A stretch of 64,000 nucleotides of DNA from Gammaproteobacteria bacterium (GCA_015487785.1 WFPC01000015.1:51942-115941); one strand, 5' to 3'; positions 3,318-36,749 are shown, counted from the first letter of the stretch. Numbers and translations: made by a program. Notes: generated by a model from the letters alone, not told the origin.

Positions 3318-3400
3318 ACGACTCAAGCCTGCCCACCCGGGCGACGATAAGGGGGGCGAGGCTTGTACAAACCCGACAATCAGCTTTGGAGAAATGACCT

Positions 3401-6707: not shown

Positions 6708-6740
6708 AAAATAGGTTGAACGGAGGAGCGTGGACGACAC

Positions 6741-7202
6741 ATGATACGCCTATTGTTGGGCCTGGTTTCACTGCTGATCATTTTTGCCATCCTGCTGCCG
6801 GTGGTGATGGACAAGCCCGAGCACATGAAAACCGACTGGGAACGCATCCGTGAGCAATTGGGTCCCTACGCCTTCAATACGCCCAAGGAGATCGAGCTGT
6901 TGCTGCGCAGGCAGAGTGTTGACCAGAAGACCCGGGAGCGCATCGAGCGTTTGATTCTCAAGACCAACGAGGAATTCTTGCCTCGCACGCCGCGTATTCC
7001 CGACACCGTGGATAACGTCATGCGTGCCTTGCGCAAGTATCTTCCCGATTACGATTTCGGCGAGCCGGTGGTGGAGGAGGCTAGTTATTTCCACTGGTTG
7101 AGCCCCAACACCAAGTGGTTCGTCTCGTCCATCGAGACCACGCGGGGGCACTTTTCCTTCTGGGAAAAGCGCATGGATGTCAGTCAACTGATCAACGACT
7201 GA
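6741..7202 (+). CDS. Hypothetical membrane-anchored protein
   Basis: 153 aa. N-terminal TM helix LLLGLVSLLIIFAILLPVV. No recognisable domain. Confidence 0.45.
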   Translation: MIRLLLGLVSLLIIFAILLPVVMDKPEHMKTDWERIREQLGPYAFNTPKEIELLLRRQSVDQKTRERIERLILKTNEEFLPRTPRIPDTVDNVMRALRKYLPDYDFGEPVVEEASYFHWLSPNTKWFVSSIETTRGHFSFWEKRMDVSQLIND

Positions 7203-7223
7203 TCGGCGAGAGCGGGGCCGCCC

Positions 7224-19395: not shown

Positions 19396-20178
19396 TCATT
19401 TTGGTTCAGGCATGGCGCGTGAGAGTTTGGCGATGAATTTCTCATCGAATTCATATGCACCCGTTTCGCGGGATTTTTTCACCATGCGCCATGTGCGTTC
19501 ATAATTAGCCTGGTCATAGGCGATTATGCCTCCCCATCTATAGGCATCTCCATAGTCTGGGGCGATGCGCAGAGCATCATCTATAAGTTTGTCTGCTGTT
19601 TCATAAAGTGCGCGTGATTTTTCCGCGTCAGTCTTTTTCAGTTTGCTTGCCTGCCAGGCATTAGCTCTTGCAACATCGACATAAAACGGCGGTTTCTCCT
19701 TCGTTTCGTCTGTCATGCTCTTGTCGATTCTGCTCATGGCATCTTCGAAATAGACCAAGGCCTTTTCAGGTTTTCCTTCACCGAGCATGAGGACCCCAAA
19801 GCCCCAATAAGGTTGATAGTAGTCCGGGTCGAGCAGCCATGCCTGGTTGAATCGCATCATGGCAGTTTTTGCGTCTCCGCTGCTCATCTTCATCCATCCT
19901 GCCATGGAAAAACGCCTGGCACCTATTTCTCTGGATCCTTCAGACCTGATAATGGACTCAATAAACTTTTGGTCACTTTCCTTCTGTTTCTTGGTTTTTT
20001 GTATTTGCGGATAATATTCAGCGCCATACATTGGCAATAGATTGAGCGGTTTGTAGTGGGCGCCACTGCTTATCAGTTCTTTTGTTTTTGGAGAGACGCA
20101 CGAGGTCAAGCCGATGATGAGAAAGAGGGAAAGTATGTAAATCCGGCGTCGATGTTTACTGGCTTCTTTATATTTCAT
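19396..20178 (-). CDS. TPR-like repeat lipoprotein, in low-GC islet
   Basis: Start taken at MKYKEASKHRRRIYILSLFLIIGLTSC (lipobox LTSC); the longer track ORF is an upstream extension. TPR-like helical repeats (YYQPYWGFGVLMLGEGKPEKALVYFEDAM..., AYRWGGIIAYDQANYERTW). GC is visibly far below the flanking genes. Confidence 0.6.
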   Translation of the reverse strand: MKYKEASKHRRRIYILSLFLIIGLTSCVSPKTKELISSGAHYKPLNLLPMYGAEYYPQIQKTKKQKESDQKFIESIIRSEGSREIGARRFSMAGWMKMSSGDAKTAMMRFNQAWLLDPDYYQPYWGFGVLMLGEGKPEKALVYFEDAMSRIDKSMTDETKEKPPFYVDVARANAWQASKLKKTDAEKSRALYETADKLIDDALRIAPDYGDAYRWGGIIAYDQANYERTWRMVKKSRETGAYEFDEKFIAKLSRAMPEPK

Positions 20179-20402
20179 TGTGTTGTCTCTCGTTATCGCG
20201 CAAACAAAACTGCCATGGGCTATAGAGAGTGAAGCCGTATCGCCATCCACGAAAGCAGTCTTTATGCTGTCTTTATACAGAATCATAGAGAAACCTGGCA
20301 AAATGTAAATACGAAAATGAATTGCCATGGACCGGTCAAGATTTGACTTGATAGCATGTCGTGCTTGTCGGCCCAGCGCTGGCGGCTTCAGTGTATTCTC
20401 CG

Positions 20403-21500
20403 TTACTCAGGTATTTCGAAAAGCAGACTTTTTACTCCCACCTCACCGCGCAGGCCCGATACATTTACCGTGAGGATATGAAGGCCTGCCGCCAGGCCCG
20501 AGGGGTTCCAGCGCCAGGTCAGTGGTACATAGCCTTGCTCCTGCTCGGAAACGAATTCGTGGTCGATGAAAAAACCGATTTCGTAGAGACTTTGCTGAAG
20601 CTGGGCCTTGTCGTTCGGATCGGCAATATCAACCCGGATGGGGCAGGGGCATGACAGAATGGGTTGGCCGGCGGCATTGAGGGGGTAGTCGCCGGTGAAA
20701 GCCACCGTGATGGCGGGCGAGAGATTGATGTCCTTGGGCAGGTAGTAGTGTTTTTCGATGCGCTTGCCATTGCGTTCCAGCTTGATGGCGGAAGGCGGTG
20801 GTGGTGGCGATTTATCGGCTAGCTGGCTGCGGTAGTCGCGGTAAGTGAGTCTATTGTTGCCATGGGCGATAATGGCATGTTCCGGAAGGCGGTAGGCGCG
20901 CGACATGATACTGAGTTTGCCGGTCTTGCGAATGTCGATGAGGCCATCCTGGTCATAGCCGTTCCAACGCACGATAACGCTGCCCCTGTTCTTTACCTCC
21001 CAGTTGGCCAGGGAGCGCAACATGGGACCGCCCTTGATGCCCGCACGCACCATGAGGCGGGCCGGGCTGGGCAGATTGAACTGAAGGTTTTTGTCGGGTG
21101 TGATGTGCATTTTCAGCTCTTCGATGACTTCACCGCCGGTGTTTCTGCGGTCGTAGGTGAAGCGCTCTCCCGTGCTGGTGGTCAGGATGGCAATTGGCAG
21201 ATAGGCTTCATCCGGCACGACCCGGCCTTGCTCGTCCTTTCCATCCCATTGCATGTGATGAGCTTTATCGCTAGGGGTGACCTCCGAGTGAAGGCTGCGA
21301 ATGAGTTCACCGTCGGGTGTGTAGATGCGTAGCTCGACTCTGCCTGCCTCAGTGGTCTTGAAGGGGATGTCAAACCGCTGGCCGTGGATGGGAGAGAATT
21401 CGTTCTTTTCGTAAGGCAGCAGACGAATAGGCAGGGTTTCCGCCGCCAGGGTGGGGAGTGGGAGCAGGAAAAAGAGCAGAATTGGGGTAAGGGTGAAATG
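20403..21500 (-). CDS. Secreted protein with FlgD-Ig-like beta-sandwich repeats (start codon unresolved)
   Basis: Track ORF begins at M (21254), but the reading frame is open up to the kinase TGA (21540-21542) and encodes a classical signal peptide KASRFFTHFTLTPILLFFLLPLPTLAA-ETLP. Domain pattern RVELRIYTPDGELIRSLHSEV...HMQWDGKDEQGRVVPDEAYLPI is the FlgD-Ig/FlgD-like fold. The 5' end is approximate. Confidence 0.5.
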   Translation of the reverse strand, partial: HFTLTPILLFFLLPLPTLAAETLPIRLLPYEKNEFSPIHGQRFDIPFKTTEAGRVELRIYTPDGELIRSLHSEVTPSDKAHHMQWDGKDEQGRVVPDEAYLPIAILTTSTGERFTYDRRNTGGEVIEELKMHITPDKNLQFNLPSPARLMVRAGIKGGPMLRSLANWEVKNRGSVIVRWNGYDQDGLIDIRKTGKLSIMSRAYRLPEHAIIAHGNNRLTYRDYRSQLADKSPPPPPSAIKLERNGKRIEKHYYLPKDINLSPAITVAFTGDYPLNAAGQPILSCPCPIRVDIADPNDKAQLQQSLYEIGFFIDHEFVSEQEQGYVPLTWRWNPSGLAAGLHILTVNVSGLRGEVGVKSLLFEIPE

Positions 21501-21539: not shown

Positions 21540-23255
21540 TCAGCCCAGCAGGAAAAACAGCAGCACCAGATTGGTGATGAACAAGACGATGGCCAGGCTG
21601 CGCCAGAAGGCGGTGGGATTCCTTTCCAGCAGGGAGGCTTCTTGTTTTTTTACCAGCTCGGGGTTGGGGTGGGTGAGATCTTGCAGGAATTCCGACAACA
21701 CCTTGTAGCGGCGTTCGGGATTCAGGCGCACGGCTTTTTCCAGCGCGGCATCAACCCAGGCGGGAATCTCAGGGTTGATGTGATTGATGGGGCGATAGCG
21801 TACCCGCTTGAGATTGCGCGCCGACAGCGGGCCTCCATAGGGTAGCTTGCCGCACAGCATCTCATAGGTGATGACGCCGATGGAATAGATGTCGGACAGG
21901 TGTGTGCCGGGGTAGCCAAGAAAGTATTCCGGCGCGGAATAGTCCAAGGTGCCCAGCAGGGCGCCGCGTTCGATGGGAGCGGCGATCTCCTGCATGCCGG
22001 CGATCTTGGTGGAACCGAAGTCGATGATCTTGAGGGTGCCGTGCTCGTCGAGCATGATGTTTTCCGGCTTCAGGTCCTGATGCACCATTTCCTGGCGCAA
22101 CAGGGCGCGTACGCCCTTGATGAGTTGCCCGACGATCTCGCGCGCTTCTGCCAGCGGGGGGTTGGGATGGTCGTTCATCCATTGGCGCAGTGACTGTCCC
22201 TCGATGTATTCGGTAAGATAGTAGAGAAAACGTCGTGGACGCGGTGGTTCGATCACTTTGAGCACATGGGGGCTGTTGATGCGTCGTCCGGCCCATTCCT
22301 CGTGCAGGAAACCATCGATGTATTGGGGATCATCCTCGAAGTTCACCGAGGGTGTTTTCATGGCCCATTTCTGCCCGGATGCCGTGTCCAGCACCAGGTA
22401 GACCTGGGTACGCTTGCTGGCATGGATTTCCCGGATCACCTTGTAGCCGTCGATAATCTGGCCGGCCTGCAGCGGTGGCGGGAAGGGCAGCTCGGTAAGC
22501 TGTCGATAGAACTCTTCCTCGTTTTGATTGGGTAGGGATTCTATTTCACATACTTGGCAGGTCACATTGTCGTGGCTGCCATTGGCCAGGGCCTGCTTGA
22601 CGATCTGGCGTGCGGCGCGGTCGGGATTGTCGCGGTACTTCTGTACCAGGGCGATCATATCCTTGGCATGCAGGTATTCATATACCCCGTCGGTGGCGAG
22701 AATGAAAATATCGCCCACCTCCAGCGGCAGGTTGCGATAGTCGATGTCGATGTTGAGATCGGCCCCCATGGCGCGGGCGAGGAAGGCCTTGCTTTCCGAG
22801 GCCCAGGTGGTGTGGTCGCGGGTAAGCCGTTCCAGTTCATTGCCGCGCAGGCGATAGATGCGTGAATCGCCCACGTGGAAGATGTGCGCGGTGGTGGATT
22901 TGAGCACCAGCACACTGAGGGTGGTGAGCATGCCTTGGCCGGTATAGTTGATACGGGCGCTTTCGCCATAGAGCCAGCGATTGAGGGCGCCGAGGATGCG
23001 CTGGCCGGAGGTTTTTACCGTCCAGGACTCCGGAGTACTGTAATAATCCAGCATAAAACCTTTGACGCAGGCCTCGCTGGCCTGGCGGCCGGCAGCGCTG
23101 CTGCTGACGCCGTCCGCCACCATGAGGGTTATGCCCTTGGTGGTGAGCAGAGGTTCTTCCGGAACCTTGATGCCGCAACAATCCTGGTTTTCGGACTTGA
23201 TGCCCTTCTCGCTCAGTTGGCCGGCGCGTATGGCCAGGCTGGAGGTAGTGCCCAT
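21540..23255 (-). CDS. Bifunctional PP2C-family phosphatase / Ser-Thr protein kinase with C-terminal transmembrane anchor
   Basis: N-terminal PP2C motifs (SENQDCCG, MVADGVSS, HVGDSRIY, TRDHT, ATDG, GSHDNVT). Central Hanks kinase (KTPSVNFEDD..., HQDLKPENIML, DFGSTK, APEY). C-terminal TM helix WRSLAIVLFITNLVLLFFLLG. 5 nt downstream of narK. Confidence 0.85.
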   Translation of the reverse strand: MGTTSSLAIRAGQLSEKGIKSENQDCCGIKVPEEPLLTTKGITLMVADGVSSSAAGRQASEACVKGFMLDYYSTPESWTVKTSGQRILGALNRWLYGESARINYTGQGMLTTLSVLVLKSTTAHIFHVGDSRIYRLRGNELERLTRDHTTWASESKAFLARAMGADLNIDIDYRNLPLEVGDIFILATDGVYEYLHAKDMIALVQKYRDNPDRAARQIVKQALANGSHDNVTCQVCEIESLPNQNEEEFYRQLTELPFPPPLQAGQIIDGYKVIREIHASKRTQVYLVLDTASGQKWAMKTPSVNFEDDPQYIDGFLHEEWAGRRINSPHVLKVIEPPRPRRFLYYLTEYIEGQSLRQWMNDHPNPPLAEAREIVGQLIKGVRALLRQEMVHQDLKPENIMLDEHGTLKIIDFGSTKIAGMQEIAAPIERGALLGTLDYSAPEYFLGYPGTHLSDIYSIGVITYEMLCGKLPYGGPLSARNLKRVRYRPINHINPEIPAWVDAALEKAVRLNPERRYKVLSEFLQDLTHPNPELVKKQEASLLERNPTAFWRSLAIVLFITNLVLLFFLLG

Positions 23256-23259
23256 GGGT

Positions 23260-24729
23260 TCAGTGTACGTCGATCATTTGCACGGTGCCATCGGGCAGGG
23301 TTTCCACCATCGCGCCGCGAGGCTCTTCCATGAAGAAATACACCAGCACCAGGGTCAGCACGGCAGCGCCGGCAATGGTCAGGAAGAAGGCCATCGGTGA
23401 TACGAAGGACAACACGGTGAGAAAGACCACTGCGCCCACATTGCCATAGGCGCCGGTCATGCCGGCAATCTGGCCGGTGAGACGACGTTTGATCAGTGGC
23501 ACCATGGCAAACACCGCGCCTTCGCCGGCCTGTACGAAAAAGGAACACAGCATGGTCACGGCCACGGCCAGGAAAAGAGGCCATTGGGCGTCTATCTGGC
23601 TCATGAGAACATAGCCCAGGCTCAGGCAGGCGAGCAGGATCAGCATGGTCTTTCGTCGACCGAATTTGTCGCTGAACAAACCGCCGCTGGGGCGTGAGAC
23701 CAGGTTCATGAAGGCATAGCCAGAGGCCAGCATGCCGGCCATCACAGCCGAGAGTTGGAAAGTGTCCTGGAAGAACAGGGGCAGCATGGACACCACCGCC
23801 AGCTCGGAGCCGAAGGTGACGAAATAGGCCAGGTTGAGAATAGCTACCTGCTTGAAGGAATAACGCTCGATTTCCGGCACGGGTTTCTCGAACACGTGCT
23901 TGTTGATGCGGTGTATGTGGAACAGCTGATAGAGAAAGATGAGTGCCAGGCTGCCATAGAGAGTGATGACCACGGCCTCTCCGAGCATCTCCAGGTTGCC
24001 GGGGCCCAGCTTCCAGGTGAGGATGGCCAGGGCACCGTACAGGGGCAGGTTCATGATGACGTAGAGAATGAAATCTCCCTTGCTGGTGACTTCCATGGCG
24101 CCGGTCTTCTTGGGTTTGAAATAGGTAGAGCCCTTGGGGGTGTTGCGGGCGGAAAAATAGAACACGAAGGAATATACCAGGGCGATGGCTCCCGTGGTGG
24201 CGATGGCGTAGCGCCAGCCGTTTTCGCCGCCGTAGAGCATGGCCAGGGTGGGCAGGGTCAGGGCCGCAGCGGCGGAGCCGAAATTGCCCCAGCCGCCATA
24301 GATACCCTCGGCCAGGCCCACCTCCCTGGCCGGAAACCACTCGGCAATCAGACGGATACCCACCACGAAACCAGCACCCACGAAGCCCAGCAGGAAGCGC
24401 AACAGGGCAAGTTGTTCATAGTCGTCGGCAAGGGCGAAGCCAAAACAGATCACGCTGGAAATGGAGAGCAGGGCGGCAAACATGATACGCGGACCCAGCT
24501 TGTCCACCAGCATGCCGACGATGATGCGCGCGGGGATGGTGAGAGCGACATTGAGAATGAGCAAGGCCTTGACCTCTTGATCGGTTAGGCCGAAGGTCTC
24601 GCGAATGGCTCCCAGCAGGGGAGCATGGTTGAACCACACGAAAAAACAGAGGAAGAAGGCCAGCCAAGACAAGTGCAGAATCCTGGTCTTGCCGGAAAAG
24701 GAAAGCAGCTTGAGTTTTGCGTCGGTCAT
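23260..24729 (-). CDS. narK: Nitrate/nitrite transporter, MFS NNP family (NarK/NasA-type)
   Basis: 489 aa, 12-TM MFS. Nitrate signature-like GGWGNFG and GAYGNVGA motifs. Confidence 0.9.
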
Positions 24730-24762
24730 CGGGACGACTCCAGGTAAAACTTTTCCAGCTCC

Positions 24763-24779
24763 TAGCTAAAATCGTGCCA
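24763..24779 (-). promoter_or_regulatory. Putative sigma54 (-24/-12) promoter for narK-kinase operon
   Basis: Minus-strand TTGGCACGATTTTAGCT versus TGGCACG-N4-TTGCW, with correct GG-N10-GC spacing. About 35-50 nt upstream of the narK start. Confidence 0.5.
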
Positions 24780-24931
24780 ATACATTAATTGTTTGTTTTT
24801 TAAAGTCTAATTTATCTACAGGGTGCATTTTTCAAATTGCCCGTGCCTCAAAAACGGGCCTTGTGGTCTCGCTTTTTCCGTGATGCACCAAAAAAGAGCC
24901 GGGAATGTTTGCGTCGGTATTCTTGATTCAT

Positions 24932-24961
24932 CTGGTGCGAGTCCCGGTTTGTACGCACCAG
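24932..24961. promoter_or_regulatory. Perfect 8-bp-arm inverted repeat between the divergent sigma54 promoters (candidate enhancer/regulator site)
   Basis: ctggtgcg-agtcccggtttgta-cgcaccag. GGTGC/GCACC half-sites recall NtrC-type sites. A further GCACC lies at about 24885. Confidence 0.35.
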
Positions 24962-25055
24962 AATAGAGCAAGCGGCGGCCAAAGGACGTCGCCAAAACGA
25001 GATCGATGCCGGATGAAATGAGATATTTCTTTTACAGTCAATATGATATGCCAAT

Positions 25056-25071
25056 TGGTCCAAATGTTGCT
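25056..25071 (+). promoter_or_regulatory. Putative sigma54 (-24/-12) promoter for nirBD-nasC operon
   Basis: TGGTCCAAATGTTGCT versus TGGCAC-N5-TTGCW with GG-N10-GC spacing. About 40 nt upstream of the nirB ATG. Confidence 0.5.
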
Positions 25072-25110
25072 TGATGGACTGGCTTTAAGACTTAGGACCC
25101 GGAGTAGGCA

Positions 25111-27549
25111 ATGCGAGAGAAACTAGTCCTGATCGGAAATGGTATGGCCGGGGTGCGCACCATCGAAGAACTGTTGAAGATAGCGCCCGAGAAGTACGAC
25201 ATCACCATTTTTGGCGCTGAACCCTATGGTAACTACAACCGCATCCTGTTGTCGCCGGTGCTGGCCGGTGAAAAGACCATAGAAGAAATCATGCTCAATG
25301 ACGAGCAGTGGTATCGCGACAACGGTATTCGCCTGCACAAGGGCAAGAAGGTGATCAAGATCGATCGCCGCCAGCGCAAGGTGATCGCCGAGGACGGCAC
25401 CGAGGAATCCTATGATCGCCTGTTGCTGGCCACCGGCTCCAACCCGTTCATTATCCCCGTGCCAGGCAACGACCTGGAGGGCGTGATCACCTTCCGTGAC
25501 ATCCATGATGTGGACCGCATGTTGGAGGCCACAAGGAAACACAAACACGCGGTGGTCATCGGCGGTGGCCTGTTGGGGCTGGAAGCGGCCAATGGGCTGA
25601 TGCAGCACGGCATGCATGTCACCGTGGTGCATATCACCGACACCTTGATGGAGCGCCAGTTGGACAAGGAGGCCGGTGCTCTGCTGCAGAAATCCCTGGA
25701 AGAACGCGGCATGAATTTTCTCATGTCCCATGTCACCGAGGCAATTCTCGGGGAGGAGCGTGTCAAGGGCGTGCGCTTCGCCAACGGCCTGGAGATTGCC
25801 GCCGACATCGTGGTAATGGCGGTGGGCATTCGGCCCAATATGGAACTGGCTCTCAATGCCGGCATCTATTGCGAGCGTGGCGTGGTGGTCAACGACACCA
25901 TGCAGACCTATGATCCGCGCATCTACGCCGTTGGTGAATGCGTGCAACATCGCGGGGTCACCTATGGACTGGTGGCGCCTCTGTTCGAACAAGCCAAGGT
26001 GGCGGCCAATCATCTGGCCGAATACGGCATTGGCCGTTACGAGGGCTCGGTAACGTCCACCAAGCTTAAGGTGACCGGTATCGACCTGTTCTCCGCCGGC
26101 GATTTCATCGGTGACGAGACCACCGAAGAAATCGTGATGAAGGATGCCGCCCGCGGTGTCTACAAGAAAGTGGTGCTCAAGGACAATCGCGTGGTCGGCG
26201 CGGTGATGTATGGCGATACCGTGGATGGTGCCTGGTATTTCCAATTGTTGCGTGACAAGACCGATGTCAGCGATATCCGCGACCATCTGATGTTGGGGCA
26301 GGCCCACCTGGGTGACGCGGGCCATGGCGGGCAGAATGCCGCCGCGGCCATGAGTGACGACATGGAGGTTTGTGGCTGTAACGGAGTTTGCAAGGGCGAT
26401 ATCGTCAAGGCCATTACCGAAAAGAAACTGTTTACCCTGGACGATGTGCGCGCACACACCAAGGCATCGGCCTCGTGTGGTTCCTGTACTGGTCTGGTGG
26501 AGCAGATTCTGGCTTCCACCCTGGGCGGGGATTACTCCGCCGCTCCCCATGCCAAGCCCCTGTGCAAATGTACCGACTACACCCATGATGAGGTGCGCGC
26601 CGCCATCAAGGAGCAAAAACTCACCTCCATCCGTGCGGTGCAGAAATTCCTCGAATGGAAAACCCCCGACGGTTGTCATGTCTGCCGCCCGGCGCTCAAT
26701 TACTATGTGATCGCCGCCTGGCCGGCGGAGGCCAAGGACGACCCACAGTCCCGCTTTATCAACGAGCGCGCGCATGCCAACATCCAGAAAGATGGCACTT
26801 ACTCGGTGGTGCCACGTATGTGGGGAGGGCTCACTTCACCCAAGGAATTGCGCGCCATCGCCGATGTGGTGGAGAAGTTCAATATTCCCACGGTGAAAGT
26901 CACCGGTGGCCAGCGCATCGATCTTCTGGGTGTACGCAAGGAAGACTTGCCAGCGGTCTGGAAAGACCTCAACGATGCAGGCATGGTTTCCGGTCACGCC
27001 TATGGCAAGTCCTTGCGCACGGTAAAGACGTGTGTGGGTCAGGAATGGTGCCGTTTTGGAACCCAGTTCTCCATGTCCATGGGGGTGAAGCTGGAGCAGA
27101 TCACCTGGGGTTCATGGATGCCGCACAAGTTCAAGATGGCGGTATCCGGTTGTCCACGCAACTGTGCTGAGGCGACCATCAAGGACTTTGGTGTGGTGGC
27201 GGTGGAATCCGGCTGGGAACTGCATGTGGGTGGCAATGGCGGCGTGAAGGTGCGCGCCACCGACCTGTTGTGCAAGGTGGCTACCGAGGAAGAGGTGATC
27301 GATCACTGCCTGGCATTCATTCAGCTCTATCGCGAAGAGGCTCATTATCTGGAACGCACCGCGCCCTGGATCGAGCGCGTGGGCCTGAGCTATGTCAAGC
27401 AGCAAATCGTGGAAAATGAAGAGCGCCGCAAGCAATTGCGCGATGCCTTCCTCGAGTCGCAGAAATACATGCAGAAGGATCCCTGGAAGGAGCGCGCCAG
27501 TGAGGGCGTGGAGAAACATGAGTTCGTACCAATCAAGCAGGTGAGTTGA
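25111..27549 (+). CDS. nirB: NAD(P)H-dependent nitrite reductase large subunit
   Basis: 812 aa. N-terminal FAD/NAD Rossmann (LVLIGNGMAG, VVIGGGLLGLE), BFD-like 2Fe-2S region (CGCNGVC...CGSC), C-terminal siroheme/4Fe-4S sulfite-reductase-like domain. Confidence 0.95.
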   Translation: MREKLVLIGNGMAGVRTIEELLKIAPEKYDITIFGAEPYGNYNRILLSPVLAGEKTIEEIMLNDEQWYRDNGIRLHKGKKVIKIDRRQRKVIAEDGTEESYDRLLLATGSNPFIIPVPGNDLEGVITFRDIHDVDRMLEATRKHKHAVVIGGGLLGLEAANGLMQHGMHVTVVHITDTLMERQLDKEAGALLQKSLEERGMNFLMSHVTEAILGEERVKGVRFANGLEIAADIVVMAVGIRPNMELALNAGIYCERGVVVNDTMQTYDPRIYAVGECVQHRGVTYGLVAPLFEQAKVAANHLAEYGIGRYEGSVTSTKLKVTGIDLFSAGDFIGDETTEEIVMKDAARGVYKKVVLKDNRVVGAVMYGDTVDGAWYFQLLRDKTDVSDIRDHLMLGQAHLGDAGHGGQNAAAAMSDDMEVCGCNGVCKGDIVKAITEKKLFTLDDVRAHTKASASCGSCTGLVEQILASTLGGDYSAAPHAKPLCKCTDYTHDEVRAAIKEQKLTSIRAVQKFLEWKTPDGCHVCRPALNYYVIAAWPAEAKDDPQSRFINERAHANIQKDGTYSVVPRMWGGLTSPKELRAIADVVEKFNIPTVKVTGGQRIDLLGVRKEDLPAVWKDLNDAGMVSGHAYGKSLRTVKTCVGQEWCRFGTQFSMSMGVKLEQITWGSWMPHKFKMAVSGCPRNCAEATIKDFGVVAVESGWELHVGGNGGVKVRATDLLCKVATEEEVIDHCLAFIQLYREEAHYLERTAPWIERVGLSYVKQQIVENEERRKQLRDAFLESQKYMQKDPWKERASEGVEKHEFVPIKQVS

Positions 27550-27550
27550 A

Positions 27551-27859
27551 ATGGCAGAGTGGATTGAAGTAGGCCCGCTGGACGAGATTCCCCGTCTAGG
27601 GGCGCGGGTGATCAAGGGCGATGAAGGCAATATTGCCATATTCCGTACTTCCAGCGATGAGGTTTTCGCCCTTGCAGACCGATGTCCGCACAAGGGTGGC
27701 CCCCTGTCCCAGGGTATCGTGCATGGTAACAGCGTGACTTGTCCCCTGCACAACTGGGTCATTGGTTTCGAGGATGGTGAAGCCAGGGCCCCGGACGAGG
27801 GTTGTACAGCCACCTATCCGGTGAAGGTCGAGAACGAGGTTGTTTTCATCCAACTCTGA
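27551..27859 (+). CDS. nirD: Nitrite reductase small subunit (Rieske-like)
   Basis: 102 aa. CPHKGGPLSQG...CPLHNW Rieske-type motif pair. Confidence 0.9.
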   Translation: MAEWIEVGPLDEIPRLGARVIKGDEGNIAIFRTSSDEVFALADRCPHKGGPLSQGIVHGNSVTCPLHNWVIGFEDGEARAPDEGCTATYPVKVENEVVFIQL

Positions 27860-27883
27860 GAACACCGACAGGAGTGCCGAGAT

Positions 27884-30076
27884 ATGCTATTTGGACGCAA
27901 AGACAGAAAACCCATCAAACTTCCCGGCAAGGACCCGGAGGTGAAGGAATGGCGCTATACCACCTGTGGCTATTGTTCCACCGGTTGTTCCATTGAGGTG
28001 GGTGTCAACGAGCAGGGCGAGGGTGTGCGCGCCCGTGGTGTGGGGGGTGCCCATGTCAATCGGGGAAAATTATGCCTGAAAGGGATCTTCGAGCACGAAT
28101 TGTTCAGCTCCGCTGGGCGCGGTACCACACCCCTGATGCGCGACAAGACCTTCGAGGATTTTCGCCAGGTTTCCTGGGATCAGGCCTTGGATCGTACCGC
28201 GGCCGAAATCAAGCGTATCCAAGAGACCTATGGGCGTGACAGTTTCGCCATCGTCTCTACCGGCCAGATTCTCACCGAGGAATTCTATACCTTGGGCAAG
28301 CTGGCCCGTGGTGTGATCGGTACCAACAACTACGATGGCAACACGACCTTGTGCATGGCCTCGGCGGTGTCCGGCTACAAGCGTTCCTTTGGCTCCGATG
28401 GCCCACCCGGTTGTTACGACGATTTCGAACACACCGAATGCCTGCTGGCCATTGGTTCCAACCTGCCAGAGCAGCATCCGATCATTTTCTGGCGCCTACG
28501 TCAGGCGTTAGAGAAGCGCAAGTTTCCCGTCATCGTGGTGGATCCGCGGGTAACCATGTTTGCCCAGATGGCCGATATGCATCTGCCCATCACGCCGGGA
28601 ACCGATGTGGTGTTGCTCAACAGCCTGGCCCACGTAATCCTGGACGAGGGCCTGGAGGACCGGGCCTATATCGAGGCCCACACCAGTGGTTTCGACGAGT
28701 TCGCCCAATTGGTGGCGCAATACGATCCGGTGAGCGCCTCGCGTATCTGTGGCATCGACGAGGACACCATTCGCAACGTGGCCCGGCTCTATGCCAAGGC
28801 CGGGGCGGCCATGACCATCTGGACCATGGGTATCAACCAGAGTACCCATGGCTCCGATGGCGTGGTGGGTATCAACAACCTCAATCTCATCACCGGCAAT
28901 ATCGGCAAACCCGGTGGTACCTCGCTGTCCATCACCGGACAGTGTAACGCCATGGGTACCCGCGAGTGGTCGTCGTGTTCGGGGCTGCCCGGTTATCGTT
29001 TGCTGGAGAACGAGCAGCATCGCAAGGAAATCGCCGAGTTCTGGGGTATCGACCCGGAGTTCTTCCCCAAGAAACGCGGCCTGTTCCAGACCGATATTTT
29101 CCCTGCCATCGAAACCGGCCAGATCAAGGGACTGTGGCTGGTGGCCACCAATCCCATGACGTCCATGCCCAATACGGCACGTATTCGCAAGACCCTGGAG
29201 AAACTGGAGTTCCTGGTGGTGCAGGATGCCTACCAGGACGTGGAGACCACCGAATACGCCCACGTTTACCTGCCGGCGGCCATCTGGGCGGAAAAAGAAG
29301 GTGTCATGACCAATACCGAGCGGCGGGTCAACTACATCAGCAATGTGGTGAAACCCTATGCCGATTCCAAGCCGGATCTGTGGATCTTCAACCAGATGGC
29401 CCAGCGTTTCGAGCAGGGGCGCAAGATCCGCTTTCCGGAAACCGCCCGCGAGGTGTTCGACGAAATGCGCCAGTTGTCCAAGGGGCGCCTGCTGGACATC
29501 TCCGGCATGACCCACGAAAAGATCCAGCAGAATCGCGGCATCCAGTGGCCTATGCCGGAAGGCGCCGAGAGTGGCTCGCCACGGCTGTATACCGATGGCA
29601 AGTTCCAACATCCCGATGGTCGCGCCAAACTGATTCCTCTGCCGTTCGTAGACAACAACGAGCGACCCGACGAGGAGTATCCTTTCTGGCTCAACAGTGG
29701 CCGGGTGGTGGAGCATTTTCACACTCGTACCCGTACCGGCAAGATCGGCAACCTCAACAAGTTCAGCCCTACCCCCTACATGGAGATGAATCCGGATGCG
29801 GCGCAGGAGCTGGGTATCGAGCACATGAGTTATGTGCGCCTGGTCTCGCGCCGGGGCGATGCCGTGGTGTTGGTACAACTGACCCATCGGGTACCGCACA
29901 ACATGGTCTTTATTCCCTTTCATTTCCATGAATGCGTCAATCGCCTCACCCTGGGATTGCTCGATCCCTATTCCCGGCAACCGGCGTTCAAACAGAGCGC
30001 GGTGCGAATCGAGCCCCTGACTGAGGAAGAGAAAGACATGGCGGCACAGATCAATCGCGCCGCCCGCGCCTATTGA
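27884..30076 (+). CDS. nasC: Assimilatory nitrate reductase catalytic subunit, short NarB-like form (molybdopterin oxidoreductase)
   Basis: 730 aa. N-terminal CGYCSTGC-x..-C 4Fe-4S motif and a Mo-bisMGD fold. There is no twin-arginine signal, so the enzyme is cytoplasmic. There is no C-terminal 2Fe-2S/NifU-like extension. Confidence 0.9.
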   Translation: MLFGRKDRKPIKLPGKDPEVKEWRYTTCGYCSTGCSIEVGVNEQGEGVRARGVGGAHVNRGKLCLKGIFEHELFSSAGRGTTPLMRDKTFEDFRQVSWDQALDRTAAEIKRIQETYGRDSFAIVSTGQILTEEFYTLGKLARGVIGTNNYDGNTTLCMASAVSGYKRSFGSDGPPGCYDDFEHTECLLAIGSNLPEQHPIIFWRLRQALEKRKFPVIVVDPRVTMFAQMADMHLPITPGTDVVLLNSLAHVILDEGLEDRAYIEAHTSGFDEFAQLVAQYDPVSASRICGIDEDTIRNVARLYAKAGAAMTIWTMGINQSTHGSDGVVGINNLNLITGNIGKPGGTSLSITGQCNAMGTREWSSCSGLPGYRLLENEQHRKEIAEFWGIDPEFFPKKRGLFQTDIFPAIETGQIKGLWLVATNPMTSMPNTARIRKTLEKLEFLVVQDAYQDVETTEYAHVYLPAAIWAEKEGVMTNTERRVNYISNVVKPYADSKPDLWIFNQMAQRFEQGRKIRFPETAREVFDEMRQLSKGRLLDISGMTHEKIQQNRGIQWPMPEGAESGSPRLYTDGKFQHPDGRAKLIPLPFVDNNERPDEEYPFWLNSGRVVEHFHTRTRTGKIGNLNKFSPTPYMEMNPDAAQELGIEHMSYVRLVSRRGDAVVLVQLTHRVPHNMVFIPFHFHECVNRLTLGLLDPYSRQPAFKQSAVRIEPLTEEEKDMAAQINRAARAY

Positions 30077-30093
30077 GGGAGTGAGAGAAACGC

Positions 30094-32055
30094 ATGTACG
30101 AAATACGTAAAGACGAACCGGACTATGCCTTCATTCCCGATGTGGATACCCCGCCCACCAACCAGTGGGGGGATCCCATCGAAACCGTGCCGGAAAATGA
30201 TGCAGTGGTCGGACAGCCGCTGGAGATCAATGGCGAACCGGTGGTGGGCACTAATCCCAACCGCTACAAGCAACACGGTTTTCATTTCACCGCCGACAAC
30301 TGTATCGGCTGTCATGCCTGTGAGGCGGCGTGCAGTGAGAAGAACAATCTGCCGCCGCACCTGAGCTTTCGTTCGGTGGGTTTTCTGGAGGGCGGCAGCT
30401 ACCCGGCCTATAAGCGCTTGAATATTTCCATGGCCTGCAACCATTGCGACAACCCTGTCTGCCTCAAGGGGTGTCCCACCCGGGCCTATACCAAGTATCC
30501 CGAGTACGGCGCGGTGATTCAGGATCCGGATACCTGTTTCGGATGTGGTTACTGCACCTGGGTCTGCCCCTACAATGCGCCGCAACTGGATCCGGTGGAA
30601 GGCCAGGTATCCAAGTGCAACATGTGCATCGACCGTCTGGAGGTGGGGCTCAAGCCCGCCTGTGCGGCGGCTTGCCTGGGAGGGGCGCTGGATTTTGGCC
30701 TGATCGAGACCACGCCCCCCAACCGGGAACAGGCCAAGATCAAGATTCCCGGTTTTCCCGATCCCAGCATCACCCATCCCAATATCCGTTTTCAGCAGGT
30801 CAAGACCCTGCCACGGGACATGACCCGGGCCGACACCATGCCCTTGCACTACATGAACGATGAGCAGGGGCGCGGTGAGGAATACAAACCCAAACCGTTG
30901 GTGAAGGAGCGCAAGAAGGAGTGGAACTGGCGGGATCTCAGTTCCCGAGAAAATCCCCTGGTGGTGTTCACCCTCATTTCCCAGGCGGTTGTGGGCGGTT
31001 TCCTGGCGCTTTTCCTCGGACCCTTGCTGGGTCTGGAGGAACTCTCCCGTGAGGCTCATCCGGTGGCTTATGCCGCGGCCTTGTTGCTGATGTTGGGCCT
31101 GCAGGGCATTGCCCTGGTGGTGTCCACCATGCACTTGGGCAAGCCGCATCGCTTCTACCGCGCGTTCAACAATCTCAAGTATTCCCCGGTGAGCCGGGAG
31201 GTGGCCTCCCTGGCGGTGTTCTTCACCTTCTTTGCGCTCTACACCGTGCTCAATACCGGTTTGTTCAATTGGCTGCCGGAGTGGTTGCTGGGCGGGCTGA
31301 GCTTTATCATCGGCCTGGCGGCGGCATTCTCGGGCCTGGTCTTCATCTATGCCATGCACAAGATCTATCGTATCCCGGCAAGACCTTTCTGGAATCACTG
31401 GCAAGTGTTGACCAGTTTCTATGGCAACATGCTCAGCCTGGGAGGGCTGTTGGCGGGGCTGGTGTTCGCCACCGCCCTGGTGTTGCAGGGTGAATCCTTC
31501 GCCGGGCTCATGGGGATGCTGGCTTTGCCCATGCTGCTGGGTCTGGCCATGGAGGCCTATGGCCTCTATCGCCATGGCAAGGACATGGATGCACGGGGCG
31601 GCGAGGGCGCCGCGGCACATCTGCGCCAGCAGACCCATTTTGGATATACCGCGCGCGTGCGTCACATCGGCCTGGGGCTGGGCATGCTCCTGGTGGCCGT
31701 GCTGGGGTTCGCCGGGGCTGATGGCTGGCTGGGGTTGGCGGGCTGGCTGCTGACGGCCCTGGTGATGATTGCCACGGCGGTGATCGGTCGCGCTCTGTTC
31801 TATGTGCTGGTGATCCCCACCACCATGCCGGGCGCCTTCTTCTGGCGCAATCCGGGCTTCCAGGAACATGCCCGGGAGACGGGTCTGGCACGCATGCCCC
31901 AGGTGGGGGTGGTGCCCAAGACCGATTATCACCACGAGCATCTGGCGCGTGCCAAACGCGAACTCAAGGAAGAGTGGGAGGAAATCCGCCGTATCGGTTA
32001 CAAGGCCGCGTTCAAGCGGGCCTGGCAGTTCGCCATCACCCGCCTGGATTATTGA
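30094..32055 (+). CDS. Fusion protein: DmsB-like 4x[4Fe-4S] ferredoxin domain + DmsC-like 8-TM membrane anchor
   Basis: Four Cys clusters (CIGCHACEAAC; CNHCDNPVCLKGCP; CFGCGYCTWVCP; CNMCIDRLEVGLKPACAAAC) in residues about 70-200. Then about 8 predicted TM helices (residues about 290-600). No signal peptide. Confidence 0.75.
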   Translation: MYEIRKDEPDYAFIPDVDTPPTNQWGDPIETVPENDAVVGQPLEINGEPVVGTNPNRYKQHGFHFTADNCIGCHACEAACSEKNNLPPHLSFRSVGFLEGGSYPAYKRLNISMACNHCDNPVCLKGCPTRAYTKYPEYGAVIQDPDTCFGCGYCTWVCPYNAPQLDPVEGQVSKCNMCIDRLEVGLKPACAAACLGGALDFGLIETTPPNREQAKIKIPGFPDPSITHPNIRFQQVKTLPRDMTRADTMPLHYMNDEQGRGEEYKPKPLVKERKKEWNWRDLSSRENPLVVFTLISQAVVGGFLALFLGPLLGLEELSREAHPVAYAAALLLMLGLQGIALVVSTMHLGKPHRFYRAFNNLKYSPVSREVASLAVFFTFFALYTVLNTGLFNWLPEWLLGGLSFIIGLAAAFSGLVFIYAMHKIYRIPARPFWNHWQVLTSFYGNMLSLGGLLAGLVFATALVLQGESFAGLMGMLALPMLLGLAMEAYGLYRHGKDMDARGGEGAAAHLRQQTHFGYTARVRHIGLGLGMLLVAVLGFAGADGWLGLAGWLLTALVMIATAVIGRALFYVLVIPTTMPGAFFWRNPGFQEHARETGLARMPQVGVVPKTDYHHEHLARAKRELKEEWEEIRRIGYKAAFKRAWQFAITRLDY

Positions 32056-33324: not shown

Positions 33325-33400
33325 TGGCTCCCCGAGCCGGACTCGAACCAGCGACCCAGTGGTTAACAGCCACTTGCTCTACCAACTGAGCTATCGGGGA
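33325..33400 (-). tRNA. tRNA-Asn (GTT)
   Basis: Reverse complement TCCCCGATAGCTCAGTTGGTAGAGCAAGTGGCTGTTAACCACTGGGTCGCTGGTTCGAGTCCGGCTCGGGGAGCCA. 7-bp acceptor stem, anticodon loop CTGTTAA, encoded CCA. Confidence 0.93.
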
Positions 33401-33474: not shown

Positions 33475-34662
33475 CTATTTTTTCAACACGACGCTGAGCC
33501 GGTCGAGGGCTTCGTCGAGCATTTCCAGGGAGGTGGCGAAGGACAGGCGCATGAAACCGGGGGCGCCAAAGGCCGAGCCCGGTACCAGGGCCACGCCGGC
33601 TTTTTCCAGCAGCCATTCGCCTAGGCTCACGTCGTCCTCGATGCCATTCAGGCTGTCGATCACCCGGCTGAAATCCGGGAACAGGTAGAAAGCGCCCTGG
33701 GCCTCGGGGCAGCGCACGCCCGGAAGTTCATTGAGGCGCTGGCGTACGTGACGGTAGCGTTTTTCGAAGGTTTCGGTCATCTGGCGAATGAAACCCTGGT
33801 CCTGCTCCAGGGCGGCGCGGGCCGCGGCCTGGGAGATGGACGCTGGGTTGGAGGTACTTTGAGACTGGATGGTCTTCATGGCCTTGATCACGGAGGCCGG
33901 CCCGGCGGCGTAACCTATGCGCCAGCCGGTCATGGCATAGGCCTTGGAGACACCGTTGAGAATCATGGTCTGGGGATAAAGCTCGGGGCAGGCGTTGAGA
34001 ATATTGCGGCAGGGTTGGCCACCCCAGACGATGGCCTCGTAGATGTCATCGCTGACCACCAGCACCTGGGGATGGCGCAACAAGATCTCGCCCAGATCGC
34101 GCAGTTCGCCCTGCGAGTAGACCGCGCCGGTTGGATTGGAAGGACTGTTGAGCACCACCATGCGGGTGCGCGCCGTGATGGCGGCATCCAGTTGCTCCGG
34201 GGTAATCTTGAAGCCCTGGTCCATGCCAGCCTGAAGGATCACCGGCACCCCGCCGGCCAGTTCCACCATGGGAGGATAGGAAACCCAGTAGGGCGCCGGC
34301 ACGACGACCTCGTCACCAGGGTCGAGCAGGGCCTGGGCCAGGTTGTAGAAGCTGTGTTTGCCACCGCAGGAGACCAGGATCTGTTCCGGCTGGTAGTCGA
34401 GAGCGTTGTCGCGCTTGAACTTGCCAACGATGGCGGACTTCAGCTCCGGCGTGCCGTCTACCGCGGTATAACGGGTCTGCCCCTGCTCGATGGCCGCGAT
34501 GGCAGCAGTCTTGATGTGTTCGGGGGTGTCGAAATCCGGTTCGCCCGCGCCCAGGCCGATGATGTCGTGTCCGGCGGCGCGCAGCTCGCCGGCGCGGGCC
34601 GTGACCGCCAGGGTGGGAGAGGGCTTGATGTTCTTGACGCGCTGGGACAGGGGAATGTTCAA
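33475..34662 (-). CDS. Pyridoxal-phosphate-dependent aminotransferase (AspC-like, class I)
   Basis: 395 aa. [16 protein letters not shown], the [13 protein letters not shown] Lys-containing motif. Confidence 0.9.
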
Positions 34663-34733
34663 GCGACTACCTCGTGTGGGACATTTCCGAAACTGCTAAT
34701 ATACTCGATTGTTTTAACGGTCAGAAAGCAAAA

Positions 34734-36749
34734 ATGTCAAAAAAATTTCAGCTCCAGGCGCCATACAAGCCGGCGGGTGACCAGCCCACAGCCATCGAGC
34801 AGTTGGTGGCCGGGCTGGAGGCCGGCGAGGCCTATCTGACCCTGTTGGGGGTAACCGGCTCTGGCAAGACCTTCACCATGGCCAATGTCATCCAGCGTTT
34901 GCAGCGCCCGGCTCTGATCATGGCGCCCAACAAGACCCTGGCCGCTCAGCTCTATGGCGAGATGAAGGAGTTTTTTCCCTTCAATGCAGTGGAATATTTT
35001 GTTTCCTATTACGACTATTATCAGCCCGAGGCGTATGTGCCGGCCTCCGATACCTTCATCGAGAAGGATGCCTCGGTTAACGAGCATATCGAACAAATGC
35101 GCTTGTCGGCCACCAAGGCGCTGCTGGAGCGGCGCGATACAGTGATCGTGGCCACGGTGTCGGCCATCTATGGTTTGGGTGATCCCCATGCCTATCTCAG
35201 TATGATGCTGCATCTGGTGCGCGGCGATCAAATCGACCAACGCCGCATTCTGCGCCGTCTGGCCGAGTTGCAATACCGGCGTAACGAGGTGGATCTGCAG
35301 CGGGGCAGTTTTCGCGTCCGTGGCGATGTGATCGATGTGTTTCCGGCCGAGTCCGATCGCGAGGCCATTCGTATTGAACTGTTCGATGACGAGGTGGATT
35401 CGCTGGCCTATTTCGATCCCCTCACCGGCGAGGTGATCCGGCGGGTGCCGCGTATCACTGTTTATCCCACGACCCACTATGTCACCCCGCGCCAGACTCT
35501 TCTCGATGCCATCGAGCAAATCAAGGAGGAATTGCGTGAACGCCTGGCCCAGTTGCGCGAACAGAACAAGCTGGTGGAGGCCCAGCGCCTGGAACAGCGG
35601 GTCCAGATGGATATCGAAATGATGCGCGAATTGGGTTATTGCAATGGCATCGAAAACTATTCACGTTATCTCTCCGGGCGCAAAGCGGGTGAGCCTCCGC
35701 CCACCTTGTTCGACTACCTGCCCGAGGATGCCTTGCTGTTTCTCGACGAGAGTCATGTCACCGTGCCCCAGATCGGGGGTATGTACCGGGGTGACCGTTC
35801 GCGCAAGGAAACCCTGGTGGAATACGGCTTTCGGCTGCCCTCGGCGCTGGACAACCGGCCCTTGCGTTTCGAGGAGTTCGAACGCCTCAGCCCACAGACG
35901 GTGTTCGTCTCCGCCACACCCGGCCCCTATGAAGAACAACACTCGGGCCAGGTGATCGAACAGGTGGTACGGCCCACTGGCCTGGTGGATCCCTCCATCG
36001 AAATCCGCCCGGTGGCCATCCAGGTGGACGACTTGCTGTCGGAGATCAACCACACCGTTGAACGCAACGAACGGGTGCTGGTAACCACGTTGACCAAACG
36101 CATGGCGGAGAATCTCACCGACTACCTGTTGGAACACGGGGTACAGGTGCGCTACCTGCATTCCGACATCGATACCGTGGAGCGGGTGGAGATCCTGCGC
36201 GACCTGCGCCTGGGCGCCTTCGACGTGCTGGTGGGCATCAACCTGCTGCGGGAAGGCTTGGACATCCCCGAAGTGTCCCTGGTGGCCATTCTAGACGCCG
36301 ACAAGGAAGGTTTCCTGCGTTCCGAGCGCTCCTTGATCCAGACCATCGGGCGGGCCGCGCGCAACATCCATGGCCGGGTGATCATGTATGCCGACAGCGT
36401 CACCGCCTCGATGAAGAAGGCCATCGACGAAACCGAGCGCCGGCGCCAGAAACAACTGAGCTATAACCGCCTCCACGGCATCACCCCCAAGGGTGTGGAA
36501 AAGGCGGTCAAGGACGTGATGGAAGGAGCCAGTCCCGTCACGCCTGCGGCATCGGCGCAGCGGTTTTCCCAGGTGGCCGAGGAAGTGATCGAATACGCCG
36601 GTCTCACGCCCGCCCAGTTGCAGCGCAAGATCAAAAAGCTGGAACAACGCATGCAACAACATGCCCGCGACCTGGAATTCGAGGAGGCCGCCCGCCTGCG
36701 CGACCGTATCCGGCAATTGCAGGAAGCCAACATGGGCATTCCCGGGTAG
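34734..36749 (+). CDS. uvrB: Excinuclease ABC subunit B
   Basis: Start at [17 protein letters not shown] (E. coli MSKPFKLNSAFKPSGDQ). Walker A GVTGSGKT, helicase motifs, C-terminal UvrC-interaction coiled coil. Confidence 0.97.

Follow-up and report, generated by a model that had tools for sequence, protein, structure and literature searches.

Within a 64,000-nucleotide (nt) stretch of DNA from a gammaproteobacterium (GCA_015487785.1 WFPC01000015.1:51942-115941), here called the window, the interval 21540-24729 consists of exactly two open reading frames (ORFs), both on the minus strand. The first, narK (23260..24729), encodes a 489-amino-acid (aa) nitrate/nitrite transporter of the NNP family within the MFS class, and the second (21540..23255) encodes a 571-aa bifunctional protein, predicted to be tail-anchored, in which a PP2C phosphatase is joined to a Hanks-type Ser/Thr kinase. 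Comparison of these genes with their relatives reveals that the conserved unit is a transporter gene followed by the kinase/phosphatase gene, independent of the fold of the transporter and of reductase genes. A functional link of the enzyme to the transporter is well supported, and we propose that the enzyme is a transporter-dedicated phospho-switch that sets the phosphorylation of membrane-proximal Ser/Thr residues in NarK and thereby tunes uptake, a reading to which we assign a probability of roughly 0.45.

A scan of GTDB with the single kinase/phosphatase protein returned nine loci, including six full-length relatives, all six of which have narK immediately upstream. Together with 80 metagenome loci, the GTDB relatives make up a set of close loci (52-68% identity) in which 66 members carry at least 1,600 nt of upstream sequence. 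A full narK lies directly upstream and on the same strand in 65 of these 66, with a median gap of about 75 nt compared with 4 nt in the window, an adjacency far beyond chance. The first-pass annotation of this DNA, made from the sequence of the window alone, had described narK followed after 5 nt by the kinase/phosphatase gene and had suggested a direct regulatory link to nitrate transport. The order and common strand are as it stated, the spacer between the narK TGA stop and the following ATG is one nucleotide shorter (ACCC, 23256..23259, minus strand), and a functional link to the transporter is well supported by the related loci. The sole exception among the close loci, L059, has a gene for a CitMHS-family transporter upstream (L059:3738-5192); its kinase is 57% identical to that of the window and is nested in the NarK-linked clade, which indicates a recent swap of partner.

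The family is also found in 37 annotated plasmid or chromid records from Alpha-, Beta- and Gammaproteobacteria and Acidithiobacillia, and 18 such loci, at 28-49% identity, provide a more distant comparison. An FNT-family gene occupies the position directly upstream in eight of them (Azospirillum lipoferum, Acinetobacter junii, Ideonella, Methylobacterium nodulans, Cupriavidus pinatubonensis, a Comamonadaceae strain, Psychrobacter and Pseudoalteromonas), a NarK/MFS gene in four (Thioclava, Catenovulum, Vibrio and Methylocystis), and an APC permease gene in one (Burkholderia sp. PAMC 26561, L108:2430-3866), where it adjoins glutamate-synthase-like genes. The FNT-linked kinases form one clade. 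The nearest solved relative of their FNT partners (plasmid loci L094-L097, L099 and L102-L104) is Chlamydomonas LCIA (E value 4e-30), not FocA or NirC. On the Acinetobacter and Psychrobacter plasmids, the latter (pA17P2) only 17 kb in size, the FNT-kinase pair adjoins the cyanase gene cynS, and the FNT substrate at these loci could be nitrite, bicarbonate or cyanate. No conserved third gene was seen downstream of the pair in the loci examined.

This exchange of partners across NarK, FNT, APC and CitMHS transporters points to a functional link with the transporter and not with the reductases. A contrary reading is that the enzyme regulates NirBD or NasA, or their assembly, with its position after narK reflecting operon packaging, and the divergent orientation of narK-kinase and nirBD-nasA, seen in the window and in many relatives, can be cited in its favor. 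However, reductase genes are absent from the neighborhood of many transporter-kinase pairs (those of Azospirillum lipoferum, Methylobacterium nodulans, Cupriavidus, Thioclava, Acinetobacter and Psychrobacter among them), which makes regulation of the reductases very improbable. The order of transporter and then kinase is conserved, whereas the position of the reductase genes is not, and the enzyme appears to be tethered to the membrane while NirBD and NasA are cytosolic.

The kinase/phosphatase of the window does not stand out within its family, which is large, named and functionally uncharacterized. A word-indexed search gave 7,998 matches at E<=1e-10 among 8,000 candidates scored, the top 120 of which are 564-582 aa long and carry the same pair of Pfam domains, and those that are named bear the NCBI product name 'bifunctional protein-serine/threonine kinase/phosphatase'. 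An exhaustive search of representatives clustered at 50% identity yielded 2,213 proteins at E<=1e-30, or about 2,200 clusters. Among the best 150 of these, extending down to 33% identity, 121 are at least 540 aa in length (540-651 aa) and mostly match nearly the full query; the other 29 are shorter partial sequences. Conservation was assessed in two sets, one of 101 aligned relatives and one of 122 diverse sequences, comprising the window protein and the 121 full-length representatives (33-53% identity). The catalytic residues of both domains are without exception invariant in the former and are 93-99% conserved in the latter, and the C-terminal hydrophobic helix is present in 107 of the 121 representatives. 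This pattern of conservation is that of long-term purifying selection on both activities and on the predicted anchor.

The PP2C (PPM) domain spans aa ~8-240 (22536..23234, minus strand), as identified by Pfam, by alignment to tPphA and by Foldseek. It scores 56.7 bits for PP2C_2 (aa 40-215; cutoff 24), 44.8 for PP2C (aa 183-231; cutoff 20.3) and 26.3 for SpoIIE (cutoff 25). Alignment to tPphA places the catalytic residues at D25, D48-G49, D130 (within GDSR), D189-G190 and D229-N230. These include the metal-binding Asp residues of PP2C motifs 1, 2, 8 and 11 and the third-metal Asp of the bacterial GDSR motif, so all five are present (D25, D48, D130, D189 and D229); they are invariant in the 101 aligned relatives, and each occurs in at least 117 of the 122 diverse sequences. 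Among solved structures, tPphA is the closest relative (E value 4e-15, 26-29% identity), with the next family at 2e-9, and the domain also aligns to PppA, PstP and Stp1. Foldseek comparison of the model returned tPphA, PppA and PstP with target-normalized template-modelling scores of 0.80-0.85. The AlphaFold2 model of this domain has a predicted local distance difference test (pLDDT) score, averaged over 10-residue blocks, of mostly 81-96, falling to 48-76 around residues 71-80, 101-110 and 141-160.

The Hanks-type kinase domain occupies aa ~265-530 (21666..22463, minus strand), an assignment based on Pfam, alignment to StkP, Foldseek and conservation. The Pfam Pkinase profile matches aa 281-516 with 127.5 bits (cutoff 31.7), and the best alignment to a solved kinase is to StkP (4.8e-34), with PknA and PknB close behind; by Foldseek, PknB, PknA and Stk1 match with target-normalized scores of 0.77-0.86. 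Alignment to StkP identifies K300, E319, H392-Q-D394, K396, N399, D412-F-G, A-P-E443 and R516, and thus the VAIK Lys, the alpha-C Glu, the HxD Asp, the catalytic-loop Asn, the DFG Asp, the APE Glu and the subdomain XI Arg are all in place. The catalytic loop reads HQD instead of HRD, which classes the enzyme as a non-RD kinase, and the activation loop, which the model shows as disordered, offers few residues for phosphorylation. Because the kinase is non-RD, phosphorylation of its activation loop is probably not needed. The profile searches and alignments agree with the first-pass annotation that a PP2C domain and a kinase domain coexist in one polypeptide, with PP2C_2, PP2C and Pkinase all above their gathering scores. 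The phosphatase is complete as described, and degenerate catalytic residues, which would have spoken against the idea of a two-way switch, were found in neither domain on alignment (at least 93% retention in the 122 sequences). We assume, from these residues, that the kinase domain is catalytically competent. Matches to phage-defence kinase families, NCBIfam MADS6 (106 bits; cutoff 460) and BREX PglW (41 bits; cutoff 990), were dismissed as generic kinase similarity.

A single transmembrane segment at aa 549-570 of 571 (21546..21611, minus strand), with the bulk of the protein before it, is predicted to anchor the enzyme in the membrane by its C-terminus, which reads FWRSLAIVLFITNLVLLFFLLG up to the stop. 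It is the sole strongly hydrophobic segment, with a 19-aa Kyte-Doolittle mean of 2.57 against a maximum of 1.19 elsewhere, and it is modelled by AlphaFold2 as a helix at 547-570 (block-mean pLDDT of 86-95 from residue 551 and 72 for 541-550). Both hydropathy and the model thus agree with the single C-terminal membrane helix that was anticipated in the first-pass annotation, and tail anchoring is supported. The helix is preceded by a juxtamembrane E-R-N-P-x-x-F-W551 motif, the Trp of which is present in 118 of the 122 diverse sequences. The linker between kinase and membrane is only ~18 residues long, which would limit the reach of the kinase to membrane-proximal targets. No sensor domain was recognized in the protein, in which conservation outside the catalytic parts is confined to the linker, the juxtamembrane motif and the transmembrane helix.

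The two genes very likely form one sigma-54-dependent operon. A sigma-54-type -24/-12 promoter element, TGGCACGATTTTAGC (24765..24779, minus strand), found by motif scan, starts 50 nt upstream of the narK ATG. In 50 of the 66 related loci, a motif of this type is found in the 250 nt preceding narK, nearly always 47-94 nt from the gene, compared with 1.9% of random 250-nt windows, and the 46 narK-kinase gaps that are 40 nt or longer all lack it. A consensus scan of the junction in the window for internal promoters and terminators revealed merely weak intragenic hairpins. Co-transcription, as had been asserted on first inspection, is very likely because of the 4-nt gap, the sigma-54 motif 5′ of narK and the lack of such motifs in the longer gaps. 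GGAG lies 9-12 nt 5′ of the narK ATG, and inspection of the narK-kinase spacer found no Shine-Dalgarno-like sequence before the kinase/phosphatase ATG, which suggests translational coupling with narK. By analogy with other nas operons, the operon is presumably controlled by NtrC and induced by nitrogen limitation.

NarK itself matches the NCBIfam model TIGR00886, 'NarK family nitrate/nitrite MFS transporter', with 344.1 bits (cutoff 311.7), and Pfam MFS_1 also matches; alignment to E. coli NarK and hydropathy agree with this identity. It is distant from the E. coli protein (7e-10) and keeps the GGWGNFG signature as well as the substrate arginines, R68 and R346, which correspond to R89 and R305 of E. 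coli NarK. The central loop between transmembrane helices 6 and 7 includes two extra hydrophobic segments at about aa 221-241 and 252-272 (23914-24069, minus strand), and by hydropathy this long subtype may be a 14-helix NNP transporter. Of 72,556 plasmid records, only 6 contain it, 5 of them together with the kinase.

Two cytosolic segments of NarK are candidates for the point of contact with the enzyme. The first, a candidate phospho-acceptor or docking segment, is the loop after transmembrane helix 6 (aa 193-220; 24070..24153, minus strand), with the motif D/N-T197-P-K-G-S201-T202-Y-F-K-P-K-K-x-G-A-M-E-V-T215-S216. Across the 66 kinase-linked NarKs it is the most conserved segment of the protein, at 0.84 compared with 0.73 overall and with 0.63 for the extra hydrophobic segments, the least conserved part. 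The second is the C-terminal tail (aa 466-489; 23263..23334, minus strand), with the motif E-E-P-x-G-x-M-A-E-x-L-P-D-G-T482-V-Q-M-I-D-V, whose conservation of 0.80 is unusual for a terminal tail and likewise makes it a candidate regulatory segment. The Ser and Thr residues of both segments are invariant or nearly so, position 482 being Thr or Ser in all 66 sequences, and the distant kinase-linked NarKs of Thioclava, Catenovulum, Vibrio and Shewanella still carry both segments. A NarK without a kinase partner, NarK1 from the respiratory narK1-narK2-narG cluster of Roseinatronobacter, is 45% identical in its membrane core and has GATKDTHK in place of TPKGSTYF and DAEV in place of DGTV, followed by an unrelated, longer tail.

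These elements can be assembled into the following scheme for the proposed phospho-switch. Under nitrogen limitation, narK and the kinase/phosphatase gene would be co-expressed from the sigma-54 promoter, and the C-terminal helix would hold a cytoplasm-facing enzyme, with an active kinase and an active PP2C, at the inner membrane. The opposed activities would then set the phosphorylation of the transporter encoded just upstream, with T197, S201, T202, T215 and S216 in the loop after helix 6 and T482 in the C-terminal tail as candidate sites, such that nitrate uptake would be tuned post-translationally by the nitrogen/carbon status of the cell. With both activities in one chain, the output would be expected to follow the ratio of kinase to phosphatase activity and not the amount of enzyme. 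In this scheme we infer NarK as the substrate, the identity of the phosphosites, whether phosphorylation raises or lowers transport, and the signal, including the ammonium suggested in the first-pass annotation. A broader proposal, that the family is a general switch phosphorylating juxtamembrane Thr/Ser residues of any co-encoded nitrogen-source transporter (NarK, NAR1/LCIA-like FNT, APC or CitMHS), is offered more tentatively.

Several observations weigh against the phospho-switch, beginning with the enzyme itself. Its ATP loop is IHASKRTQVY (H278-A-S-K-R282-T-Q-V-Y), where StkP has IGRGGMADVY, and therefore does not conform to GxGxxG. The claim in the first-pass annotation of a complete Ser/Thr kinase thus stands for the catalytic residues, whereas the Gly-rich loop has no glycine and the HQD sequence is of the non-RD type. 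A loop of this kind might belong to a pseudokinase or scaffold, in which case the PP2C alone would be catalytic, for instance in removing phosphates added by another kinase, and it is the glycine-free loop of the window's clade that gives rise to this idea. The glycine-free loop is, in fact, the family consensus, with one Gly in only some distant members. Pseudokinases normally lose some catalytic residues, whereas K300, E319, D394, N399, D412 and E443 are invariant in the 101 aligned relatives, which makes such a role highly unlikely. Moreover, the substitute residues of the loop are themselves conserved (R282 in 104 of the 122 sequences), suggesting a nucleotide pocket that is altered but functional. 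The whole AlphaFold2 model has a mean pLDDT of 82.3 and a predicted template-modelling score of 0.55, and the interdomain geometry is therefore unreliable, with no interpretable orientation of the PP2C domain relative to the kinase.

The remaining points against the phospho-switch concern the transporter. Phosphorylation of NarK is itself conjectural, and a single kinase family recognizing four unrelated transporter folds would have to be re-adapted each time. Five of the 18 distant loci have no same-strand transporter gene directly upstream: in Shewanella, Skermanella, A. thermophilum and Comamonadaceae plasmid 2, a nitrate/nitrite-type or MFS transporter gene is divergent, convergent or elsewhere on the plasmid, and the A. 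caldus copy is flanked by insertion sequences, with no transporter gene in the stretch examined. The comparison with a kinase-less NarK depends on one sequence. The FNT partners share the tail LY(S/T)TH(V/Y)(R/K)TxPKR and the short NarK partners RWRTTWG; a phospho-acceptor motif common to NarK, FNT and short NarK was sought in these segments and set aside, since it amounts to a loose theme of a Thr in a basic juxtamembrane stretch, which chance could produce through the positive-inside rule and which we do not count as evidence. Finally, the divergence of NarK and kinase is only moderately correlated over all pairs in a mirror-tree comparison (r=0.48), and identities to the window NarK and to the window kinase are negatively correlated (r=-0.46). 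When the window is compared with L001, L004, L015 and L029-L031, the closest kinases (67%) are paired with less similar NarKs (56%) and the closest NarKs (73-78%) with less similar kinases (55-64%). This discordance argues against tight pairwise co-adaptation and suggests that narK or kinase alleles have been exchanged between lineages.

Loose coupling of this kind would be easier to reconcile with an arrangement in which the transporter is the sensor. As such a transceptor or co-sensor, it would have its transport cycle or occupancy read by the enzyme by way of the tail-anchor helix and the juxtamembrane ERNPxxFW segment, and the enzyme would phosphorylate a soluble target, for instance a protein that regulates nitrogen assimilation, much as in DctA-DcuS, LysP-CadC or BceAB-BceS. 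The enzyme is without a recognizable sensor domain, and partnership with four unrelated folds is easier to accommodate if a generic feature is read or the target lies elsewhere. Sensing of nitrate must also come from somewhere, as the leaders of narK and nirB, only ~25-40 nt from sigma-54 motif to start, are too short for NasT/NasR-type antitermination, and nasS/T, nasR and ntrBC are all missing from the window ORFs scanned. However, no candidate for a soluble substrate, such as an FHA protein or a regulator, is conserved beside the pair in the loci examined, the short tether favors membrane-proximal targets, and for the conserved loop and tail of NarK, a role as substrate or docking site is no less plausible than one as a signalling surface. 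The co-sensor arrangement is compatible with the same observations as the phospho-switch and is its main rival, but we regard it as less likely.

The resemblance of the phosphatase domain to tPphA raises a further alternative, in which the enzyme acts on a PII-type protein (GlnB, GlnK or a similar regulator) that in turn plugs or releases the transporter, as with phosphorylation of Ser49 in cyanobacterial PII and its reversal by PphA. tPphA, a phosphatase of phosphorylated PII, is the closest solved PP2C by a margin of several orders of magnitude in E value and is among the top Foldseek matches. Control of nitrate transport by PII is established in cyanobacteria (PMC10945777, PMC8042125). Against this, tPphA is one of few bacterial PP2Cs of known structure, and the identity to it is low. 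None of the loci has glnB or glnK linked to the pair, and neither gene was found among the window ORFs scanned. The PII proteins of proteobacteria are uridylylated on Tyr51 and usually have no Ser49. A soluble, global substrate would also leave the strict adjacency to the transporter gene and the tail anchor unexplained, and a PII-type substrate appears improbable.

The fusion of PP2C and kinase was recognized in 2005 in P. aeruginosa, P. putida and P. syringae as a new, uncharacterized class (PMC1262709), and the P. aeruginosa member, PA1782, appears only as a predicted kinase in lists from 2021 and 2024 (PMC8560001, PMC11197903). In the 2013 genome paper on Pseudomonas sp. UW4, the order nasST-nasA-ppkB-nasDEC-cobA was reported, and phosphorylation of plant and yeast transporters was raised as a possible parallel (PMC3596284). 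The statement in the first-pass annotation that a kinase gene holds the same position in Pseudomonas nas operons is thus correct for nasA-ppkB of this strain, and the interpretation of the enzyme as acting by transporter phosphorylation restates an existing hypothesis. Full-text searches of the literature found no experimental study of this kinase/phosphatase family.

The window protein shares with the PA1782/PpkB type the order of PP2C and then kinase (PMC1262709), the location of its gene directly after that of a nitrate transporter (PMC3596284) and the NCBI product name borne by its database relatives, and it has the PP2C-kinase-transmembrane architecture and length (~560-600 aa) of this type. 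Kinship with PA1782 and with P. putida PP_2091 was judged only from product name, described architecture and gene order. The window differs in that its transporter is the long NarK subtype (489 aa), which has the two additional hydrophobic segments, and in that narK-kinase is divergent from nirBD-nasA instead of belonging to one co-directional cluster, with no nasST nearby.

Other systems share parts of this logic. The pairs PknB-PstP of Mycobacterium, StkP-PhpP of Streptococcus, Stk1-Stp1 and PpkA-PppA of the P. aeruginosa type VI secretion system employ the same two folds in a reversible, membrane-associated Ser/Thr switch. In contrast to these separate proteins, the window enzyme carries both activities in one polypeptide, has a C-terminal tail anchor with no extracytoplasmic sensor (PASTA or other), has a non-RD kinase with a glycine-free ATP loop, and is partnered with a transporter gene and not with cell-wall or secretion genes. 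AceK and HPr kinase/phosphorylase also add and remove phosphate on a dedicated substrate with one polypeptide, giving control of the ratio type, but they have unrelated folds and do so with one shared active site or domain, whereas the window enzyme has two separate canonical domains. In cyanobacteria, the PII/PphA system likewise involves a PP2C, tPphA being the closest solved relative, in the short-term control of nitrate transport by nitrogen status; PphA, however, is free and soluble and acts on PII, whereas the PP2C of the window is fused to a kinase, apparently tethered and linked to a transporter, with no PII gene nearby. We know of no kinase identified for cyanobacterial PII.

Nitrate transporters in plants and yeast are under Ser/Thr phosphorylation according to nitrogen status, as exemplified by phosphorylation of NRT1.1 T101 by CIPK23, by the N- and C-terminal sites of NRT2.1 and by Ynt1/Npr1. 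Plant NRT2 and yeast Ynt1 belong to the same NNP family as NarK, and T482 in the NarK tail recalls the C-terminal sites of NRT2.1. The comparison is one of analogy only, as the regulators are non-homologous and the eukaryotic kinase and phosphatase are separate, soluble proteins.

Divergent from narK lies an assimilatory cluster (25111..32055, plus strand), the genes of which were identified with NCBIfam and Pfam: nirB (25111-27549), nirD (27551-27859), a gene for a 730-aa NasA-type molybdenum nitrate reductase (27884-30076) and one for a 653-aa 4Fe-4S/DmsC-anchor fusion protein (30094-32055). A sigma-54-like element, TGGTCCAAATGTTGC (25056..25070, plus strand), starts 55 nt upstream of nirB; it is a pattern match only and is weaker than the element on the narK side. 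Inspection by eye of the 381-bp narK/nirB intergenic region (24730-25110) revealed an inverted repeat, TCTGGTGCG-N14-CGCACCAGA, which together with GGTGCA / TGCACC half-sites resembles NtrC-type enhancer sites, a likeness judged by eye with no statistics. An antiterminator leader or riboswitch at narK or nirB was considered and rejected in view of the short leaders and of the Rfam search, whose sole match in the window is a tRNA gene (33328-33400, minus strand). Within the cluster at 27884-32055, the NasA-type reductase lacks a Tat signal as well as any NAD(P)H or ferredoxin domain, and the fusion protein encoded 17 nt after it combines a DmsB-like 4Fe-4S domain (Fer4_11) with a DmsC-type membrane anchor. 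Such an arrangement is suggestive of a cytoplasmic assimilatory reductase fed by a membrane-anchored, possibly quinol-linked electron supply, unlike the usual NasC/NirB or ferredoxin route.

On the other flank of the pair are two ORFs without a family match, followed by dapB and dnaJ-dnaK-grpE-hrcA. These two ORFs, 3′ of the kinase gene (19396-21254, minus strand), encode proteins of 283 and 310 aa with no Pfam match at E<=1e-4; NCBIfam returned nothing for the former and a weak TPR-type match, TIGR02917, for the latter (26 bits; cutoff 312), and tblastn matches to both were confined to contigs of the same organism. A second PP2C-type enzyme in the window (36763-38286, minus strand; 507 aa) consists of Hpt, response-regulator receiver and SpoIIE/PP2C domains, as in an RsbU-like phosphatase under phosphorelay control, and is unrelated to the nas cluster. 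Elsewhere in the window, ORFs with no Pfam match at E<=1e-5 encode proteins of 333 aa (1033-2034) and 363 aa (33748-34839) on the plus strand and of 248 aa (2758-3504), 864 aa (4146-6740), 586 aa (6768-8528) and 231 aa (50273-50968) on the minus strand, and the ORF at 45926-50194 encodes 1,422 aa, including Big_2 Ig-like repeats.

As far as the literature was searched, the breadth of transporter partners (NarK, FNT, APC and CitMHS), the occurrence of two-gene modules that stand alone, the conservation of the sigma-54 promoter, the lack of glycine in the ATP loop as a family trait and the conserved loop and tail residues of NarK are new. Transcriptional control of nitrate uptake, by NtrBC/sigma-54 and by NasST or NasR, is known from heterotrophic proteobacteria, and to our knowledge the adjustment of uptake over seconds to minutes is not established in these organisms. 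The narK-kinase pair is a strong and compact candidate for such short-term control. Partnership with four kinds of transporter and the frequent absence of reductases narrow the hypothesis to action on or through the transporter, and the residues to mutate are now identified. Tractable systems are at hand in PA1782/PA1783 of Pseudomonas and in the Acinetobacter and Psychrobacter plasmids, where the genes for an FNT channel and the kinase are accompanied only by cynS. If the family does act as a general transporter switch, it would represent the first case of a Hanks kinase gating the activity of a bacterial transporter, would offer a possible explanation of how ammonium rapidly and post-translationally inhibits nitrate uptake in heterotrophic proteobacteria, and would be a convergent counterpart of NRT2/NRT1.1 regulation in plants. 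The gene pair is extremely common in environmental Gammaproteobacteria, which gives it relevance to nitrogen cycling in marine waters and sediments.

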